Below are positions 33,285-40,148 of a stretch of 64,000 nt of DNA, piece after piece. This stretch comes from an uncultured Candidatus Saccharimonas sp. GTDB taxonomy: Bacteria; Patescibacteriota; Saccharimonadia; Saccharimonadales; AWTP1-31. Within the stretch, counting starts at the first letter, position 1. Each line of letters begins with the position of its first letter. The stretch is from positions 147 through 64,146 of the forward strand of contig CALRBE010000001.1 in assembly GCA_943354005.1 (NCBI GenBank), written 5' to 3'. The position numbers and the translations under genes were made by a program. The notes below the pieces were generated by a model. That model was not told where the DNA came from and did no database searches. It saw nothing but the letters and a program-made list of their open reading frames with translations.

Positions 33285-34745
33285 ATGGCAAAGAAATTAC
33301 CAATCGTCGCTATTGTTGGCCGCGCCAACGTAGGTAAATCGACGTTATTTAATAATATTCTACGACGCAGAGAAGCTATCGTTGCAAATGAAGCGGGTAC
33401 AACCCGAGACAGCATCATGGCAAAAGCATCGGTCTATATTGACGTACCAAAAGAGATCACCGAAGAAGAAGAAAAACCTTCTCGAAAAGTCCGCCGTACT
33501 GATGGTTCCCAGCAAAAATGGCGCACAAGCATCGAGCGTGAAAGACAAGATTTCTGGCTCGTCGATACGGCAGGAATGAAAGATGCTGAAGATGATTTTG
33601 AGTTTACTATTCAAGAGCAAATCACACAGGCTGCAGATAGCGCAGACGTTATCTGGGTAGTTATTGAAGGAAGCACGATTATCACAGAAGAAGATCGTCG
33701 TGTTGCAAAAATGGCACTGAAGACAAAGAAGCCCGTCATGCTTGTTGTAAACAAGATGGACAAGGCCGGACACAAGACGCACAGCGACTTTCAACGACTT
33801 GGCATCAAAGAAATTATTCTGATTAGTGCTTCACAAAACGCTGGAATAGATGAGCTCTTAGAATGTCTAGTAGAGCATATCGGTAAAGCTAGACTCGAAG
33901 AAGATCCAAATCGCTTACACATAGCAATCCTTGGCCGACCAAATGTTGGTAAGTCTCAGCTGTTTAATACGCTTGCTAAGAAACAGCAGGCTATAGTTGC
34001 CGATAGAGCAGGGACAACCCGAGATATTAACCGCACGATCGTGAAATATCAAGGTCGAGAAATCGAACTCTTAGATACAGCAGGAATTAGAAAAAACGGA
34101 AAAATTGAAGTTGGCATCGAACGCTTTAGCGTTATTCGTAGCCTAAGTGCAATTGAGCAAGCTGACGTATGTGTCATGTTGATGGATGTTAACGAACTTA
34201 ATGTACAGCTTGATCAGAAGATTGCTGGAATGATTAAAGAAGCAGGTAAGGGTCTCATACTAGTAATCAGTAAATGGGACAGTATTGAAGACGATAAAAC
34301 TGCCTTTACCCGCGACTCGATGGCTGCCCAAATTCGTAATAACTTTGCCTTTGTACCATGGGCTCCACTCGTTATCACAAGCTCCGTAACAGGCCAGAAT
34401 GTAACTAAACTCTTTGAATTAGCTCTCGAAATTGATGAACGACGAAAACAAAAGTTCACGACTAGCGAGCTAAACAGGTGGCTACGTAAAGTTGTCAGCA
34501 TGCACCCACCAGCTGGACTTAAGAACCGAACACCTAAACTTAATTACATTGTGCACGAAGACGATAATTCTATCCCAAGCTTTAAAGTTTTTGGTTCTCA
34601 TACGAAGTTTCTACACTGGAGCTATAAGCGTTTCATGGAACGTAATCTACGTGAGTCATATAATTTCGAGGGTAGTGCAATACATTTCTGGTTTATCGAA
34701 AAACACGTGACCCACAAACACGGTACACGCCCAGAAGAAGAATAA
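33285..34745 (+). CDS. der: ribosome-associated GTPase Der (EngA)
   Basis: There are two G domains (GRANVGKST..DTAG..NKMD and GRPNVGKSQ..DTAG..SKWD) plus a KH-like C-terminus. A charged insertion lies in G domain 1. Confidence 0.9.
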   Translation: MAKKLPIVAIVGRANVGKSTLFNNILRRREAIVANEAGTTRDSIMAKASVYIDVPKEITEEEEKPSRKVRRTDGSQQKWRTSIERERQDFWLVDTAGMKDAEDDFEFTIQEQITQAADSADVIWVVIEGSTIITEEDRRVAKMALKTKKPVMLVVNKMDKAGHKTHSDFQRLGIKEIILISASQNAGIDELLECLVEHIGKARLEEDPNRLHIAILGRPNVGKSQLFNTLAKKQQAIVADRAGTTRDINRTIVKYQGREIELLDTAGIRKNGKIEVGIERFSVIRSLSAIEQADVCVMLMDVNELNVQLDQKIAGMIKEAGKGLILVISKWDSIEDDKTAFTRDSMAAQIRNNFAFVPWAPLVITSSVTGQNVTKLFELALEIDERRKQKFTTSELNRWLRKVVSMHPPAGLKNRTPKLNYIVHEDDNSIPSFKVFGSHTKFLHWSYKRFMERNLRESYNFEGSAIHFWFIEKHVTHKHGTRPEEE

Positions 34746-34789: not shown

Positions 34790-35437
34790 ATGGGATTATT
34801 TCAAAAGAAGATACATTCAGACGTCAAACATGCTCCTCTATACACCATAGGAGGCCAGCAGACGCTGTTGATCGTCGGACTTGGTAATCCAGGTGATTCT
34901 TACGCAGGAACGCGTCATAATGCCGGATTTGACTGCTTAAACGCTTTTGTCGCTGGTCATGATGAATTTGGAAAGTGGGTAACCAAAAAAGACTTATCTT
35001 GTGATATTGTCAGTGGTATTTTTGGCGGGACTAGAGTCATAGTCATTAAACCTACAACTTTCATGAATGATAGTGGGCGAGCAGTACAAGCAGTACAGTC
35101 ATTTTATAAAATTGCTAATACTCAAACTATCGTTGTTCATGATGAGCTAGCGCTACCGTACGGTCAGATCCGCACCAGCATTGGCGGTAGTTCGGCAGGG
35201 CATAATGGCATTAAATCGCTTATCTCTCATTGTGGTGAAGATTTTGGACGAGTTAGAATCGGTATTGATAATCCAGACAAGCCCAATGGTGACACCAAAG
35301 ATTTCGTCCTAAAACCGTTTAATAGTAGCGAAAAAGCTCACACATCTGCGCTCCTACGAGAAACAGAAAGTATTCTTATTGAATCAGTTTTCCAGCACAA
35401 ATTGCCTACTGAAACTAGATCATTTATTATCGGTTAG
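34790..35437 (+). CDS. pth: peptidyl-tRNA hydrolase
   Basis: Motifs LIVGLGNPGDSYAGTRHNAGF and GGSSAGHNGIKS are present. Confidence 0.9.
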   Translation: MGLFQKKIHSDVKHAPLYTIGGQQTLLIVGLGNPGDSYAGTRHNAGFDCLNAFVAGHDEFGKWVTKKDLSCDIVSGIFGGTRVIVIKPTTFMNDSGRAVQAVQSFYKIANTQTIVVHDELALPYGQIRTSIGGSSAGHNGIKSLISHCGEDFGRVRIGIDNPDKPNGDTKDFVLKPFNSSEKAHTSALLRETESILIESVFQHKLPTETRSFIIG

Positions 35438-36010
35438 TGATTCTCTTACCGCAATATGATCACTAAGATAATCAATAGTTACTAGAGTCCTGTGTGCGGA
35501 AGCAACTCCCATATGCCATGCCTGGTTAAGGCTACGTGGTTCTTGGTTTACGGAGTTAATATTTTGTCGTAAAAGTATTGCATCGCCAGGTCCATAAGTC
35601 GTTTGAAAACGCGGCGTATTATTAATGTCATACTGTTCAGTATCGCAAGAAAATAGGGCCCGTGATCCTAAATATGGAACTAGTAGTGATACACCTTTTC
35701 GAGCAGTACTATCTACATGAGCCTCCATGGCTGATCCAATATTGGGATACGGGTCGATAACGTCAACAACCAATTTGCTATCTTCAAGGTCTCTGATATC
35801 CAAAAGGTTCAAAAAACCTACAATCTCGGGTATTCTTGTCGATAATAGAGCGGGGGATTGAGGAACGCCTTTGTCTCTTAGAAGATTGAGAGATTCTTCT
35901 GAAATAATTCGTGATAATTTGGCGGCGCCGTATTCTAGGCAACACTCAAGGGCGTCCACACTAAAGCCAGTGAAGGCGATACGTGATTCAGGCAAGGTAT
36001 GGTCTGTCAT
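35420..36010 (-). CDS. hypothetical protein, possibly Fe(II)/2OG-dioxygenase-like
   Basis: A 196-aa ORF with an HxD (AHVDS), a distal His (AWHMG) and an Arg (HRTL) spaced as in cupin-type dioxygenases. This is a weak, by-eye call. Confidence 0.4.
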   Translation of the reverse strand: MTDHTLPESRIAFTGFSVDALECCLEYGAAKLSRIISEESLNLLRDKGVPQSPALLSTRIPEIVGFLNLLDIRDLEDSKLVVDVIDPYPNIGSAMEAHVDSTARKGVSLLVPYLGSRALFSCDTEQYDINNTPRFQTTYGPGDAILLRQNINSVNQEPRSLNQAWHMGVASAHRTLVTIDYLSDHIAVRESLTDNK

Positions 36011-36033
36011 CCATATTAGATTGCCATACTTTT

Positions 36034-36081
36034 ATGAAAACAAAAAGAGCCTCTAGAGGGGGTGGGCACCGCTAGAGGCTC
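36034..36081 (-). terminator. Rho-independent terminator (minus strand)
   Basis: The minus strand reads GAGCCTCTAG-CGGTGCCCACCCCCT-CTAGAGGCTC, a 10-bp perfect stem, followed by TTTTTGTTTTC. It ends about 25 nt before the start codon at 36010. Confidence 0.6.
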
Positions 36082-36385
36082 ATTACACCCTTCAACCCAC
36101 CCGAGCGAAGCATCAGAACCTAAAATATATAATGGCCTGTGCCGCCTCGATTAAAAATCGAGATCATCTGTTCGACTCACTTTGAAATCGGGACCACCAG
36201 CTGTAAACAGTAGGTGGGTGCTAGTTAAAGGGGTTAGTTTGTTTTAGAGCGTGAACTTGGTAAACCAAGAACAACGAAATATAAGTGGAGGGTAACAACT
36301 TATGGCTCTAACGCTCTAAAACAATCTAACAATTGTTAGAATTTGGGGTAGAAGGTACGTAAAACCTAAAAAATAGGAATTACAA
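36082..36385 (-). ncRNA. candidate structured RNA of unknown class (cis-leader or sRNA)
   Basis: No ORF lies between a good minus-strand promoter and the terminator. There are multiple hairpins and mutually exclusive GGTGGG/CCCACC pairings. See findings. Confidence 0.35.
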
Positions 36386-36391
36386 GTTGCA

Positions 36392-36420
36392 ATAATAACA
36401 AAAATATTTCATAAAGTCAA
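36392..36420 (-). promoter_or_regulatory. sigma-70-type promoter, TTGACT-N17-TATTAT with TG extension (minus strand)
   Basis: The minus strand reads TTGACT (36420-36415), a 17-nt spacer ending in TGT, then TATTAT (36397-36392). Confidence 0.45.
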
Positions 36421-36596
36421 TACCATTATGCATTATTGTGTATTTCGCAATATAGTGTTTTTCTATGTATAAAGATAAGCAGTATGCTAAGACGAGACCA
36501 GAACAGTGTAAATTGATTGAATAAATTTGCATTTGTTATCTAATTCATATAATCTTACGCTTTGTAATTAATAAAGAAACGTTATACTTAAGCAAT

Positions 36597-38891
36597 ATGT
36601 CAAAGAACCTTGTTATCGTAGAGTCCCCAGCAAAAGCTAAAACTATCGAGAAATACCTCGGTAGTGACTTTGTCGTTAAAAGCAGCATGGGCCACATTCG
36701 TTCGTTACCAAGCAAGAATGGTAGTATCGATGTTAAAAACAAATTCGAACCTATATTTGAGATCAATCCAGACAAAAAGAAAACTATTGCTGAACTTAAA
36801 AAACAGGCAAAGACAGCCGATACTATCTGGCTCGCATCTGATGAAGACCGAGAAGGAGAGGCTATTGCTTGGCATCTAGCAGAAGTATTGAAGCTTGACC
36901 CTAAAACAACCAAACGAATTGTATTTCATGAAATTACTAAAAGTGCGCTCGATCACGCTATTAAGAATCCTCGCACAATAGACTTACCGCTTGTTGAAGC
37001 TCAGCAAGCTCGTCAAGCTCTAGATTATCTTGTAGGGTTCGAATTAAGTCCTGTGCTATGGCGAAAAGTACGCCCTCAGCTAAGTGCAGGAAGAGTCCAG
37101 AGCGTTGCCGTAAGACTTGTCGTCGAACGAGAGCGGGAAATCGAAAAGCATGATGCAGAGTCATCTTATAAGGTAACTGCTGAATTAAAACTTAAAGATG
37201 GCACAGAGCTACTCGCGGAAGCTAGTAAAAAATATCAGGATGCGACCTCAGTACTAAAAATTCTTGAAGCTTTTAATGAAAGTGAATTTAGTGTATCCGA
37301 TATCAGTCGCAAGCCAAGCATCCGAAACCCATCGGCTCCATTTATAACTAGTACATTGCAGCAGGAGGCGAGTAATAAGATAGGCTTTAGCCCTCGTACG
37401 ACCATGCAGCTTGCCCAAAAGCTATATGAAGCAGGATTAATCACTTACATGCGTACCGACTCTGTAGCGCTTTCTAAAGTAGCGACAGATGCAATGAGTG
37501 AATATATAATTAAGCGCTACGGCCAAGATTACTACCAATTTAGAACTTTTAAATCTAAAAGTGCCGGTGCGCAAGAAGCTCACGAAGCGATTAGACCAAC
37601 GAATATTAAAGTAGAAGAGGCTGGTGCCGATGCACAGCAGTCGAAACTATATAGTCTTATCTGGCGTCGAACTATTTCTACTCAGATGCAGCCAGCAAAA
37701 CTTGAAAAGACAACTATTAGCGTAACTGCCTCAAAAACCAAAGAAGTCCTTGAGGCCAAGGGAGAAGTAGTAATTTTCGATGGTTATCTAAAAGCTTATG
37801 GGCGGAGTAAAGATGATTCTCTTTTGCCACCACTCGAAGCAGGTGACCCCCTAACATTAGTCAGTGCAGATGGTCTAGAAAACCTTAGCCGTGGACCAGC
37901 ACGCTACACAGAAGCGTCACTAGTGCGCAAACTCGAGGAAATGGGTATCGGACGTCCAAGTACATATGCAAGCACTATTAGCACCGTCCAGACACGTGGC
38001 TATGTTGAACGCAGCGATCTTGAGGGACAAGAAAGAAATATCCAACGTATTACGCTTAAGAACGGCAAAGTTCTCCAAACTGAAGAGAAAATAGCTTACG
38101 GAAAAGATTCCAATAAACTGTTCCCAACAGACACAGGGAAAGTTGTAACTGATTTTCTAGTTAAACACTTTAGTGAAGTTATGGATTACGATTTTACTAA
38201 AACAGTAGAGCAGGATCTTGATGAAATAGCTGAGAACAAGAAAAACCGTGTCGAAGTACTTGAAAAGTTCTATGGACCTTTCCATAAGCTAGTAGAGGCA
38301 AGTGCCGATATTTCCAGAGCAGAGGCAACGCAAACGCGCCACATTGGAGATGATCCAAAAGGTAAAGTACCAATTTTTGCACGATTTGGGCGCTACGGAC
38401 CAATGTTGCAGCGAGGAGAGCAGTCAGATGATCCAAAGCCTACGTTCGCTCCGCTACCTACAGGAACAAAGATAGAGACAGTAACACTCGAAGAAGCACT
38501 TGAAATGTTTAAGCTACCGCGTTTAGTAGGTGAGACCAAAGAAGGTTTACCGATTAAAGCCAACATTGGACGATTTGGTCCATATATTCAAATAGATAAG
38601 CTATTCGTATCAATAAAGCCACTTGATCCAATGAAAATTACACTAGAAGAATCATTAGATCTATACGCCGAAAAACTTAAAAAAGAAGCCGAAAAGAACA
38701 TAAATGACTTCGGTGACGGAGTAAAAGTTCTTAATGGTCAATACGGACCATATATTACTGATGGGAAGAAGAACGCTAAGATACCGAAAGATGTCGAGCC
38801 CAAGGACATTACCCACGAACAAGCAATAAAGCTACTCAAAGAAGCTCCAGATAAAAAACGCTTCACTCGACGCAAAAAGAAAGCTGCCTAG
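36597..38891 (+). CDS. topA: DNA topoisomerase I
   Basis: The Toprim motifs are LVIVESPAKAKTIEKYLG and ASDEDREGEAIAWH. The active-site Tyr region is ITYMRTDS, and the C-terminus is Lys-rich. Confidence 0.95.
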   Translation: MSKNLVIVESPAKAKTIEKYLGSDFVVKSSMGHIRSLPSKNGSIDVKNKFEPIFEINPDKKKTIAELKKQAKTADTIWLASDEDREGEAIAWHLAEVLKLDPKTTKRIVFHEITKSALDHAIKNPRTIDLPLVEAQQARQALDYLVGFELSPVLWRKVRPQLSAGRVQSVAVRLVVEREREIEKHDAESSYKVTAELKLKDGTELLAEASKKYQDATSVLKILEAFNESEFSVSDISRKPSIRNPSAPFITSTLQQEASNKIGFSPRTTMQLAQKLYEAGLITYMRTDSVALSKVATDAMSEYIIKRYGQDYYQFRTFKSKSAGAQEAHEAIRPTNIKVEEAGADAQQSKLYSLIWRRTISTQMQPAKLEKTTISVTASKTKEVLEAKGEVVIFDGYLKAYGRSKDDSLLPPLEAGDPLTLVSADGLENLSRGPARYTEASLVRKLEEMGIGRPSTYASTISTVQTRGYVERSDLEGQERNIQRITLKNGKVLQTEEKIAYGKDSNKLFPTDTGKVVTDFLVKHFSEVMDYDFTKTVEQDLDEIAENKKNRVEVLEKFYGPFHKLVEASADISRAEATQTRHIGDDPKGKVPIFARFGRYGPMLQRGEQSDDPKPTFAPLPTGTKIETVTLEEALEMFKLPRLVGETKEGLPIKANIGRFGPYIQIDKLFVSIKPLDPMKITLEESLDLYAEKLKKEAEKNINDFGDGVKVLNGQYGPYITDGKKNAKIPKDVEPKDITHEQAIKLLKEAPDKKRFTRRKKKAA

Positions 38892-39107: not shown

Positions 39108-40148
39108 ATGGCAGAAACAGTACAAACCGAAACAACTACAATGGAGCAGATGGTTAAAGACGTCATCGCAACCATTGAACGTGAACGAGAGCGAGAGATT
39201 ATCGAGCGTCGTTTTGGTCTTTTTGATCGAAAAGAAACACTCGAACAAATCGGTGAATTACTTGGCATTACAAGGGAACGCGTCCGTCAGCTTGAAAAAT
39301 CAGTTGTTATAAAGCTAAAAGCTGCTTCTGAATCTGACCTACCACACATAAAAGACTTTCAGGAAAAGCTAAAGAATCACCTAAATACAGTTGGTGATAT
39401 TTCTCGAATTAAAGTTCTAACAAGCCTTTATGCCGGAGATAACGATAAGCTAACTCAATCTAGAATCTCATTCTTGTCACATTTGAGCCCTTCACTACAT
39501 GTTATTGAAGATAACGATCACTTCCATCACGCTGTTAGCATTAAAGCTACTAATGATGCAGCGCAAGTAAAAGCTAGCTTAGATAACATTATTACTTCTA
39601 TAAAGAAGCTCGGTAAACCAGCTAAGATAGATGCTATAGCTAACGAAGCATCTATTAAAAGCGTCAAGAACGCAGCAGCTCTCGCAAGTACAAGCAAGCA
39701 GCTTGCTACCCTTAACGGACTATGGGGCCTCATCAAATGGCCACTCGTAAACCCTAAAAACATTCGCGATAAGATCTACGTTATCTTAAGTGTTAATGGT
39801 AAGCCTATGCACTTTAATGAGATCGCTAAAGCGATTAAGGGTTCAGAGTTTAAGCGGAAGAACGTAACTACTCAAGCAATTCATAATGAGCTAATCAAAG
39901 ATGGACGCTTCGTACTTATCGGCCGTGGTATCTATGCTCTTAAAGAGTGGGGATACGCTAAAGGTACTGTAGCTGACATCATTACTGATGTATTGAAAAA
40001 AGCCGGTGAACCTCTTCATCGTGAAGAAATAGTCAAAAGAGTACTTGAAAGTAGGCACGTTAAGGAAACTACAATCCTTCTGAACCTACAGGGCAAGACT
40101 CAGTTCAAGCGAGTTGCAAAAGCAACATATACTCTCAGCGAAGCTTAA
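39108..40148 (+). CDS. sigma-70 region 4 / HARE-HTH domain DNA-binding protein
   Basis: The N-terminus RRFGLFDRKETLEQIGELLGITRERVRQLEKSVVIKLK is sigma region 4. The C-terminus MHFNEIAKAIK...VTTQAIHNELIKDGRFVLIGRGIYALKEWGY is HARE-HTH-like. Confidence 0.7.
   Translation: MAETVQTETTTMEQMVKDVIATIEREREREIIERRFGLFDRKETLEQIGELLGITRERVRQLEKSVVIKLKAASESDLPHIKDFQEKLKNHLNTVGDISRIKVLTSLYAGDNDKLTQSRISFLSHLSPSLHVIEDNDHFHHAVSIKATNDAAQVKASLDNIITSIKKLGKPAKIDAIANEASIKSVKNAAALASTSKQLATLNGLWGLIKWPLVNPKNIRDKIYVILSVNGKPMHFNEIAKAIKGSEFKRKNVTTQAIHNELIKDGRFVLIGRGIYALKEWGYAKGTVADIITDVLKKAGEPLHREEIVKRVLESRHVKETTILLNLQGKTQFKRVAKATYTLSEA

Follow-up and report, generated by a model that had tools for sequence, protein, structure and literature searches.

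We describe a locus in a 64,000-nucleotide (nt) stretch of DNA from an uncultured Candidatus Saccharimonas sp. (contig CALRBE010000001.1, positions 147 to 64,146; hereafter the window), in which the gap between topA and an oppositely oriented open reading frame (ORF) of 196 amino acids (aa) is occupied by what we consider, with high confidence, to be an independent gene for a structured non-coding RNA (ncRNA) of a new family. The original prediction, made from the letters of the window, had recognized here a promoter-to-terminator unit of about 350 nt ending just before a 'dioxygenase-like' gene, and had proposed either the expression platform of a riboswitch or leader, or a stand-alone small RNA (sRNA). 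The elements of the RNA in the order of transcription, followed by the neighbouring genes, are:

36415-36420, minus strand: -35 box TTGACT, found by a site scan
36392-36400, minus strand: extended -10 element TGtTATTAT, with TATTAT at 36397-36392 and TG at 36400-36399
36037-36387, minus strand: predicted transcript of ~350 nt, an interval spanned by the nhmmer and covariance-model matches
36359-36383, minus strand: P1 hairpin, GUAA..CCUA / UAGG..UUAC, with compensatory changes at 8/8 pairs among 87 distinct sequences
36341-36358, minus strand: J1/2, the near-invariant C-rich single strand ACCUUAUACCCC, consensus G(U/C)ACCUU(A/U/C)UACCCC
36325-36340, minus strand: P2 hairpin, UCUAAC-AAUU-GUUAGA, with 98% of cells paired
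36239-36324, minus strand: P3 three-way domain, the P3 stem being formed by 36324-36312 with 36251-36239
36303-36281, minus strand: P3a, in which the apical closing stem AAGU/ACUU covaries
36287-36297, minus strand: P3a apical loop UGUUACCCUCC, invariant, with a predicted unpaired probability of 0.85
36269-36256, minus strand: P3b, a variable hairpin of the P3 three-way junction
36224-36238, minus strand: J3/4 (ACUAA) and the 5' strand of P4 (CCCCUUUAAC), an invariant block
36103-36223, minus strand: variable central domain inside P4, 65-170 nt long and of clade-dependent architecture
36088-36102, minus strand: G-rich block GGGUGG (36102-36097) and the 3' strand of P4, GUUGAAGGG (36096-36088), invariant apart from L038/L040/L261 and the end pair of P4
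36047-36081, minus strand: terminator hairpin, its 13-bp stem interrupted by a single conserved C.U mismatch and capped by the invariant 9-nt loop UGCCCACCC (36068-36060)
36037-36046, minus strand: T-tract UUUUUGUUUU, directly after the terminator stem
35420-36010, minus strand: 196-aa ORF, downstream of the RNA on the same strand
36597-38891, plus strand: topA, upstream of the RNA and divergent from it
34790-35437, plus strand: pth
33285-34745, plus strand: der

The promoter, TTGACT-17 nt-TATTAT, scores 10/12 and is the top-scoring site within 35000-37500, which bears out the site with its TG extension that had been picked from the sequence. The ends of the predicted transcript are taken from the -10 box (5') and the T-tract (3'), and the transcribed part holds no ORF of at least 30 aa, as had been claimed for the unit; a 50-aa ORF at 36380-36532 covers the promoter and lies upstream of the transcript, in a stretch that is poorly conserved. 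At the 3' end, GAGCCUCUAG.GG (36081-36069) pairs with CC.CUAGAGGCUC (36059-36047) to form the terminator stem, which is absent from an automatic scan because the scan allows loops only to 8 nt. The end of the T-tract is 27 nt from the ATG of the 196-aa ORF at 36010, close to the 25 nt estimated before. The RNA strand folds with a minimum free energy (MFE) of -111.9 kcal/mol, against -78.7 +/- 4.9 kcal/mol for dinucleotide shuffles (z = -6.8).

These boundaries are retained across a comparative set of 103 distinct core sequences, in which the RNA is 251-525 nt long (median 351 nt). The -35 box is TTGACA in 83/103 unique sequences and TTGACT in 17/103, the spacer is 17 nt in 98/103 and the TG extension is present in 102/103, giving the family consensus TTGACA-17-TAnAAT with a TG extension; the distance from the end of the -10 box to J1/2, the first invariant block, is 33-38 nt in nearly all homologues. 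At the 13 positions of the terminator stem 92% of cells are paired, compared with 67% in shuffles, and nearly every position is 100% paired among the 103 homologues. Each position shows 4-6 pair types, double-change cells number 381, and at least 7 T within 13 nt on the 3' side of the stem are found in 97/103. The terminator proposed near 36081-36034 is thereby confirmed by a covarying stem and a T-tract. Just upstream of the -35 box stand two copies of a 17-nt direct repeat (36430-36463; 82% matched; plus strand, GCAATATAGTGTATTTC), which close relatives retain in part and which may serve as an UP-element or bind a regulator.

Nearly every locus examined from Saccharibacteria (TM7; candidate phyla radiation) carries the RNA; the homologues come from ~30 genomes and from metagenome contigs, and their place is always between pth and dprA/topA. 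In a scan with one genome per species the window is 99% identical at TopA to the Candidatus Saccharimonas metagenome-assembled genome (MAG) CALRBD010000003.1, and all close TopA relatives are Candidatus Saccharibacteria / Saccharimonadia. Compared with locus L007, the RNA region 36400-36104 is 92-96% identical, against ~76% for the whole region and 52-61% for the 196-aa gene. A profile search with the RNA found full-length matches in ~25 more distant Saccharibacteria MAGs and genomes with TopA identities of 55-75%, and homologues near topA are always on the opposite strand, 0.2-2.8 kb upstream of it. Scanning metagenomes for two invariant blocks (TACCCTCCACT-N20-50-CTAACCCCTTTAA) returned at least 120 contigs, and a full-length RNA homologue is present in every metagenome contig among the matches listed. 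A covariance model finds a single match at each Saccharibacteria locus (34-145 bits), the window included; loci labelled Beckwithbacteria, Melainabacteria, 'Patescibacteria group' or Bacteroidia gave no match, nor did L041. Among the loci examined the RNA is confined to Saccharibacteria, is single-copy per locus and is fixed in position between housekeeping genes. A phage origin was considered and rejected, as a 14-mer scan of viral contigs gave chance matches only and the RNA was confirmed in 0/120.

A 'short type' of the RNA is found at L018, L028, L031, L047, L175, L180, L184, L201, L204, L233, L235, L252, L271, L274, L277, L281, L285 and L286. Its P1 has the form GAUUGGUUG.../...CAACCAAAC, its P3 differs in sequence, its central domain is much reduced and its terminator loop stands in the context GAUGCCCACCCUUAC; it probably marks a separate Saccharibacteria lineage.

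The usual gene order in relatives is pth (+), a variable small minus-strand ORF or nothing, the RNA (-), and divergent dprA (+) and topA (+). The dprA gene (DNA_processg_A, ~280-288 aa) stands between the RNA and topA in most relatives (L013-L050); it is missing from this position in the window's clade, where the RNA is directly divergent from topA.

This comparison bears on the relationship between the RNA and the gene that follows it. A cis-acting leader, in the form of a riboswitch or attenuator, could control the 196-aa gene through the terminator, which lies close enough to the start codon for read-through to feed the gene in the window genome; mutually exclusive G-rich/C-rich pairings, of the kind that such a leader would use, do exist in the RNA. 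Against this, homologues of the 196-aa protein form only 9 clusters among 5.8 billion proteins and are encoded on contigs that share the gene order of the window, while the RNA is class-wide, and the RNA is highly conserved where the 196-aa gene has diverged. In different genomes the RNA is followed by minus-strand ORFs that are homologous neither to each other nor to the 196-aa protein (mean column identity 17%, 0 invariant columns), and at L049, L042, L047, L031 and L030 the RNA terminator directly adjoins the 3' end of pth, which converges on it, so that no gene lies downstream of the RNA. Between the RNA and the 196-aa gene a putative weak promoter can be read from the sequence (TTTTCA at 36040-36035, 16 nt, TAATAT at 36019-36014), which would plausibly serve that gene separately. 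No conserved anti-terminator competes with the terminator stem, which covaries freely, and Rfam 15 shows no match to a catalogued aptamer class, whether at gathering scores or at E <= 10. Because the gene behind the RNA varies from genome to genome and is sometimes lacking, control of the 196-aa gene by a leader is very unlikely; of the two forms first proposed, the stand-alone RNA, with its own conserved promoter and terminator and outlasting its neighbours, is the one that stood.

The 'dioxygenase-like' label of the downstream gene could not be verified: the protein has no Pfam or NCBIfam match, and its AlphaFold2 model (pLDDT, the predicted local distance difference test score, of 36) is too poor for use. 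The protein has an invariant H98-x-D100...H166 and R174, a set that would suit a 2-His-1-carboxylate (Fe/2-oxoglutarate oxygenase-like) site.

The region is conserved in relatives, and its helices covary. Helices of the 5' domain were specified by hand and counted on a MAFFT alignment of 50 sequences, in which 87% of cells are paired compared with 73% after shuffling, with 209 double-change cells versus 77. A covariance model was built from this alignment and 90 matches were realigned to it, giving 89.9% of cells paired versus 75.7%, compensatory changes at 21/31 pairs and 330 double-change cells versus 99; 0/500 shuffles reach the observed values, and slid controls are 28-43% paired. Having been fitted to the model, the second alignment leans towards structure; the MAFFT counts do not depend on this fit and agree with it.

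The individual helices vary in how they change. In P3 the stem has compensatory changes at 10/12 pairs and 95-96% of cells paired, and in one subtype UUUUAGAGCG is replaced by GCGCGCAAUG. P2 is nearly invariant, its changes being U-A to U.G and A-U to G.U, and its loop is enlarged by an inserted hairpin in many members. The long-range helix P4, formed by CCCCUUUAAC (36233-36224) and the 3' strand given above, has 9 bp that are 100% paired and invariant except for the end pair, which changes from C-G to G-C in L205, L213, L207, L258, L236, L241 and L049 and to U-A in L043; these compensatory changes occur in at least 8 sequences from several clades. Inside P4, the central domain of the window holds the hairpins CACCCACC/GGUGGU (36220-36193) and GGCAC...GAUGCUU, and by inspection a hairpin flanked by GRCAC and GAUGYUU covaries. 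The upper terminator stem is G-C in one subtype and A-U in the other, so that the apical loop is fixed as the invariant UGCCCACCC.

One strand of P3, UUGUUUUAGAGCG (36312-36324, partner 36239-36251, minus strand), starts like the Cas9 CRISPR repeat GUUUUAGAGC; we dismiss this as coincidence because the segment is half of the P3 helix and covaries to unrelated sequences in other clades. A type III toxin-antitoxin antitoxin (ToxI-like) was rejected, as the RNA contains no tandem repeats and the downstream gene is not conserved.

That the locus is not an RNA gene at all, and instead encodes a small protein or acts as a DNA element (an origin, a cluster of binding sites or the end of a mobile element), has in its favour the bare presence of short ORFs and nothing more. 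The compensatory changes include G.U pairs, which are specific to one strand. The RNA is not coding because the lengths between blocks are not multiples of 3 and the ORFs are short (longest sense ORF, median 29 aa); there is no conserved ORF, and insertions and deletions are likewise not multiples of three. The lack of tandem repeats, the absence of the RNA from viral contigs and its fixed position between housekeeping genes speak against this explanation as well, and we regard it as negligible.

Comparison with described RNAs identified no known family. The window, sets of 14 and 20 related loci and the RNA alone were compared with Rfam 15, using both gathering and permissive thresholds; the window yielded three tRNAs only, the 14 related loci gave no match, and at E <= 10 the RNA (366 nt), a longer segment (801 nt) and 20 diverse members gave chance-level matches only. 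The best of these is the Staphylococcus aureus sRNA tsr25, with 18.6 bits against a gathering score of 63 and an alignment that runs through the C-rich stretches. The literature searched held nothing relevant on a Saccharibacteria ncRNA of this kind, and the ncRNA-discovery literature searched made no mention of Saccharibacteria or TM7.

The size, strong promoter, single copy and clade-wide conservation of the RNA would fit a housekeeping RNA, which raises the question of whether a universal RNA (RNase P RNA, transfer-messenger RNA (tmRNA), signal recognition particle (SRP) RNA or 6S RNA) has diverged far enough to escape Rfam thresholds. The stretch GGGUG...GGGUG..UAAnGAGC recalls J11/12-P12 of RNase P RNA, and GGGUGGGUUGAAGGGUGUAAUGAGC can be likened to what we take to be the GGGUGAAAGGGUGCGGUAAGAGC stretch of the E. 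coli molecule. Hallmark motifs were checked directly because RNase P RNAs of the candidate phyla radiation diverge below default thresholds: 10/35 circular genomes of that radiation needed lowered thresholds for their detection (Lui et al. 2021; PMC8172020). In that same study a recognisable RNase P RNA was recovered in 35/35 genomes with RF00010 (Lui et al. 2021; PMC8172020), which argues against a form so diverged that it is missed here. Neither RF00010 nor RF00011 was matched at E <= 10 on the 366-nt and 801-nt segments or the 20 member loci (scores above ~13 bits listed), nor were tmRNA, SRP or 6S models matched on the RNA alone or the 20 members. The RNase P motif CR-I (GAAAGUCC) occurs with one mismatch in 5/103 sequences, exact AAAGUC in 1/103 and CR-V in 1/103, and the P4 helix of RNase P, formed from CR-I (GGAAAGUCC) and CR-V (ACAGAAnnCGGCUUA), is not present as a feature of the 103 members.

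The architecture points the same way. Each end of the RNA forms a hairpin of its own, that at the 3' end being the terminator, and the two ends are not paired together; the architectures of RNase P RNA, tmRNA, SRP RNA and 6S RNA are therefore excluded. We rejected tmRNA on this 3' end, on a negative ARAGORN search and on the absence of the T-arm (GGUUCGAnUCC, 0/103), and SRP RNA and 6S RNA on the local end hairpins, the absence of the SRP domain IV motif (0/103) and the lack of an Rfam match. Thus, while the RNA resembles RNase P RNA (RF00010/RF00011) in size, clade-wide conservation and single copy, it differs in having neither the CR-I/CR-V P4 helix nor P1 end pairing and in matching no model. 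It shares with 6S RNA (ssrS) a strong promoter and a conserved gene position, together with the abundance and action in trans that may be supposed for it; 6S RNA, in contrast, is a single rod of ~180 nt with paired ends and a central bubble that acts by mimicry, where the Saccharibacteria RNA folds into several domains with a local hairpin at either end. Rfam, ARAGORN and the hallmark motifs agree with the earlier failure to match the unit to tmRNA, RNase P or SRP consensus, and we judge a diverged universal RNA to be highly improbable.

Set between the covarying helices are unpaired segments that hardly change. Three C-rich elements, J1/2, the P3a loop and the terminator loop, share a (U/G)ACCC-N-CC pattern; the P3a loop contains CCUCC, the canonical anti-Shine-Dalgarno core sequence, and its UACCCUCCAC is invariant in A2 and A3. 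In partition-function folding of 73 representatives the P3a and terminator loops are mostly unpaired (probabilities 0.85 and 0.84). GGGUGGG (36102-36096) and the CCCACCC in the terminator loop are exact complements, and a contact between them could be a pseudoknot or an intermolecular one; covariation is silent on it because both sides are invariant. In the L038/L040/L261 clade GGUUGA or GGUCGA replaces GGGUGG and the terminator loop is unchanged, and an obligatory GGGUGGG:CCCACCC contact is therefore weakened.

The original prediction had drawn several exclusive pairings from these G-rich and C-rich tracts. The tracts are there, although several of its coordinates were off by one (GGGUGGG lies at 36102-36096, GGUGG at 36198-36194 and CCCACCCCC at 36066-36058). 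The complementarity of GGGUGGG to the invariant terminator loop is the sole one of its pairings to fall on invariant sequence; the alternation of CACCCACC (36220-36213) between GGUGG and GGGUGGG was not borne out, as this segment lies in the variable central domain, which other members do not conserve there. Some conserved segments do have pairings that exclude one another; these are not the ones it had proposed. The MFE fold of the window sequence pairs the G-strand with J1/2 and not with the 5' strand of P4, while covariation favours P4 as its partner.

An echo of P2 is found elsewhere in the window. The segment 39002-39101 (plus strand), before a sigma-70-region-4/HARE-HTH gene (39108-40148), shares 93% identity with L007 (background ~76%) and holds a TTGACT-17-TATAAT promoter and a 5' untranslated region ending in AAUUCUAACAGGUUAGGGAAACACC. 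The latter repeats the UUCUAAC...GUUAG words of P2, only in the closest relatives (window, L029), and this likeness may be due to chance.

The boundaries of the gene, its conservation, its structure and its independence from the downstream gene are observed directly in these comparisons and frame what the RNA might do. We favour, with modest confidence and on the strength of sequence comparison, a stand-alone structured RNA of ~350 nt that acts in trans and uses its C-rich loops as the working surface. Transcription would start from the near-perfect, conserved sigma-70-type promoter and stop at the intrinsic terminator; from this promoter we infer an abundant RNA, presumably acting in trans. 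The covarying scaffold of P1, P2, the P3 domain, P4 and the terminator hairpin would then display invariant single strands, namely J1/2, the P3a loop, the terminator loop and the G-rich GGGUGG. The C-rich loops would most likely bind a G-rich partner, which may be Shine-Dalgarno-like GGAGG/AAGGGG sites in mRNAs, a conserved G-rich RNA or a protein.

Binding to a G-rich partner is ranked first because the C-rich loops, which are predicted to be accessible, match the layout of RNAIII and RsaE/RoxS. Like these and the other Rsa/tsr sRNAs of Firmicutes, the Saccharibacteria RNA stands alone with its own promoter and an intrinsic terminator, and like RNAIII and RsaE/RoxS it has hairpin loops, the terminator loop included, with conserved C-rich motifs that could pair with G-rich ribosome-binding sites. 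It has, however, no sequence or structural homology to RNAIII, RsaE or the tsr RNAs, the tsr25 score being far under threshold; it is larger than RsaE and differs further in its long-range helix and in a G-rich strand that is invariant. The RNAs of the RNAIII/RsaE group are conserved in a genus or family, whereas the blocks of the Saccharibacteria RNA are invariant class-wide, and no enrichment of target sites is seen for it in the window.

Base pairing of the C-rich loops to RNA targets, argued by analogy, is accordingly a tentative proposal, and several observations weigh against it. Complements of the C-rich loops in the 64-kb window are as frequent as in shuffles. Use of Shine-Dalgarno sequences, judged from the regions upstream of ~57 ORFs, appears weak: many genes lack a recognisable one, and visible ribosome-binding sites are of the AAGG(A/G)(G) type. 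Single strands of 10-17 nt that stay unchanged throughout a class would be expected of an RNA whose partner is universal or a protein more than of a base-pairing regulator. The partner of the G-strand is ambiguous in thermodynamic ensembles: the G-strand is almost always paired (0.17 unpaired) with its partner divided between P4 (0.38) and J1/2 (0.26), GUUAG is shared by UCUAAC of P2 (0.52) and CUAAC of J3/4 (0.45), and the C-rich and G-rich blocks are invariant, so that covariation cannot tell whether they are free, mutually paired or switching. In several genes of the window the start codon closely follows a -10-like TATAAT/TAnAAT, only a few bases away, a placement that suggests frequent leaderless mRNAs in this genome.

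Almost as likely as RNA pairing, and likewise a possibility to be held with caution, is a protein-binding or self-assembling scaffold, that is, a housekeeping-type ribonucleoprotein (RNP). In one version a conserved protein would bind at the repeated (U/G)ACCC-N-CC elements and be sequestered, as by CsrB or 6S RNA; in another the CCCACCC loop and the GGGUGGG tract would form a pseudoknot within one molecule or kissing contacts between molecules and so build a compact or multimeric particle, as OLE, ROOL and GOLLD do. The three similar C-rich elements and the perfectly complementary G-tract, invariant class-wide, fit such a scaffold, as do a promoter of stable-RNA strength and a single copy at a fixed position in reduced genomes, and natural RNA-only multimers are known (PMC12286853). 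A scaffold sits less well with the lack of a conserved neighbouring protein gene specific to the RNA and with L038/L040/L261, in which the tract is altered opposite an unchanged loop, and the invariant positions allow no covariation.

The RNA shares with OLE, raiA, ROOL, GOLLD and HEARO a size of hundreds of nt, restriction to a lineage, covarying helices between conserved unpaired nucleotides and a function that cannot be deduced from gene context. It differs from these RNAs in that it matches none of their Rfam models, in its Saccharibacteria host and in its lack of association with prophages, tRNA clusters or partner-protein operons.

More speculatively, and in our estimation improbably, the RNA would be an essential, class-wide component of Saccharibacteria without counterpart elsewhere, either the core of an RNP or a catalytic RNA replacing a lost function, or a molecule that self-assembles through CCCACCC/GGGUGGG kissing. 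Both versions would be compatible with two sets of exclusive pairings, of GUUAG with either CUAAC and of the G-strand with J1/2, the 5' strand of P4 or the terminator loop, and these alternatives could form a conformational switch that answers a cellular signal.

Saccharibacteria live as ultrasmall epibionts whose genomes, of ~1 Mb, have lost many standard functions, and to our knowledge very little is known of their RNA biology. A fixed locus, a strong promoter and blocks of 10-17 nt that are unchanged while neighbouring proteins drift to 55% identity suggest that strong selection acts on the function of this RNA. The kind of object is familiar, a stand-alone bacterial ncRNA ended by a terminator, while the family itself, which Rfam 15 lacks, appears to be undescribed. 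Its annotation in hundreds of MAGs is now possible, and it provides a concrete experimental target in the few Saccharibacteria that are cultivated and genetically tractable.

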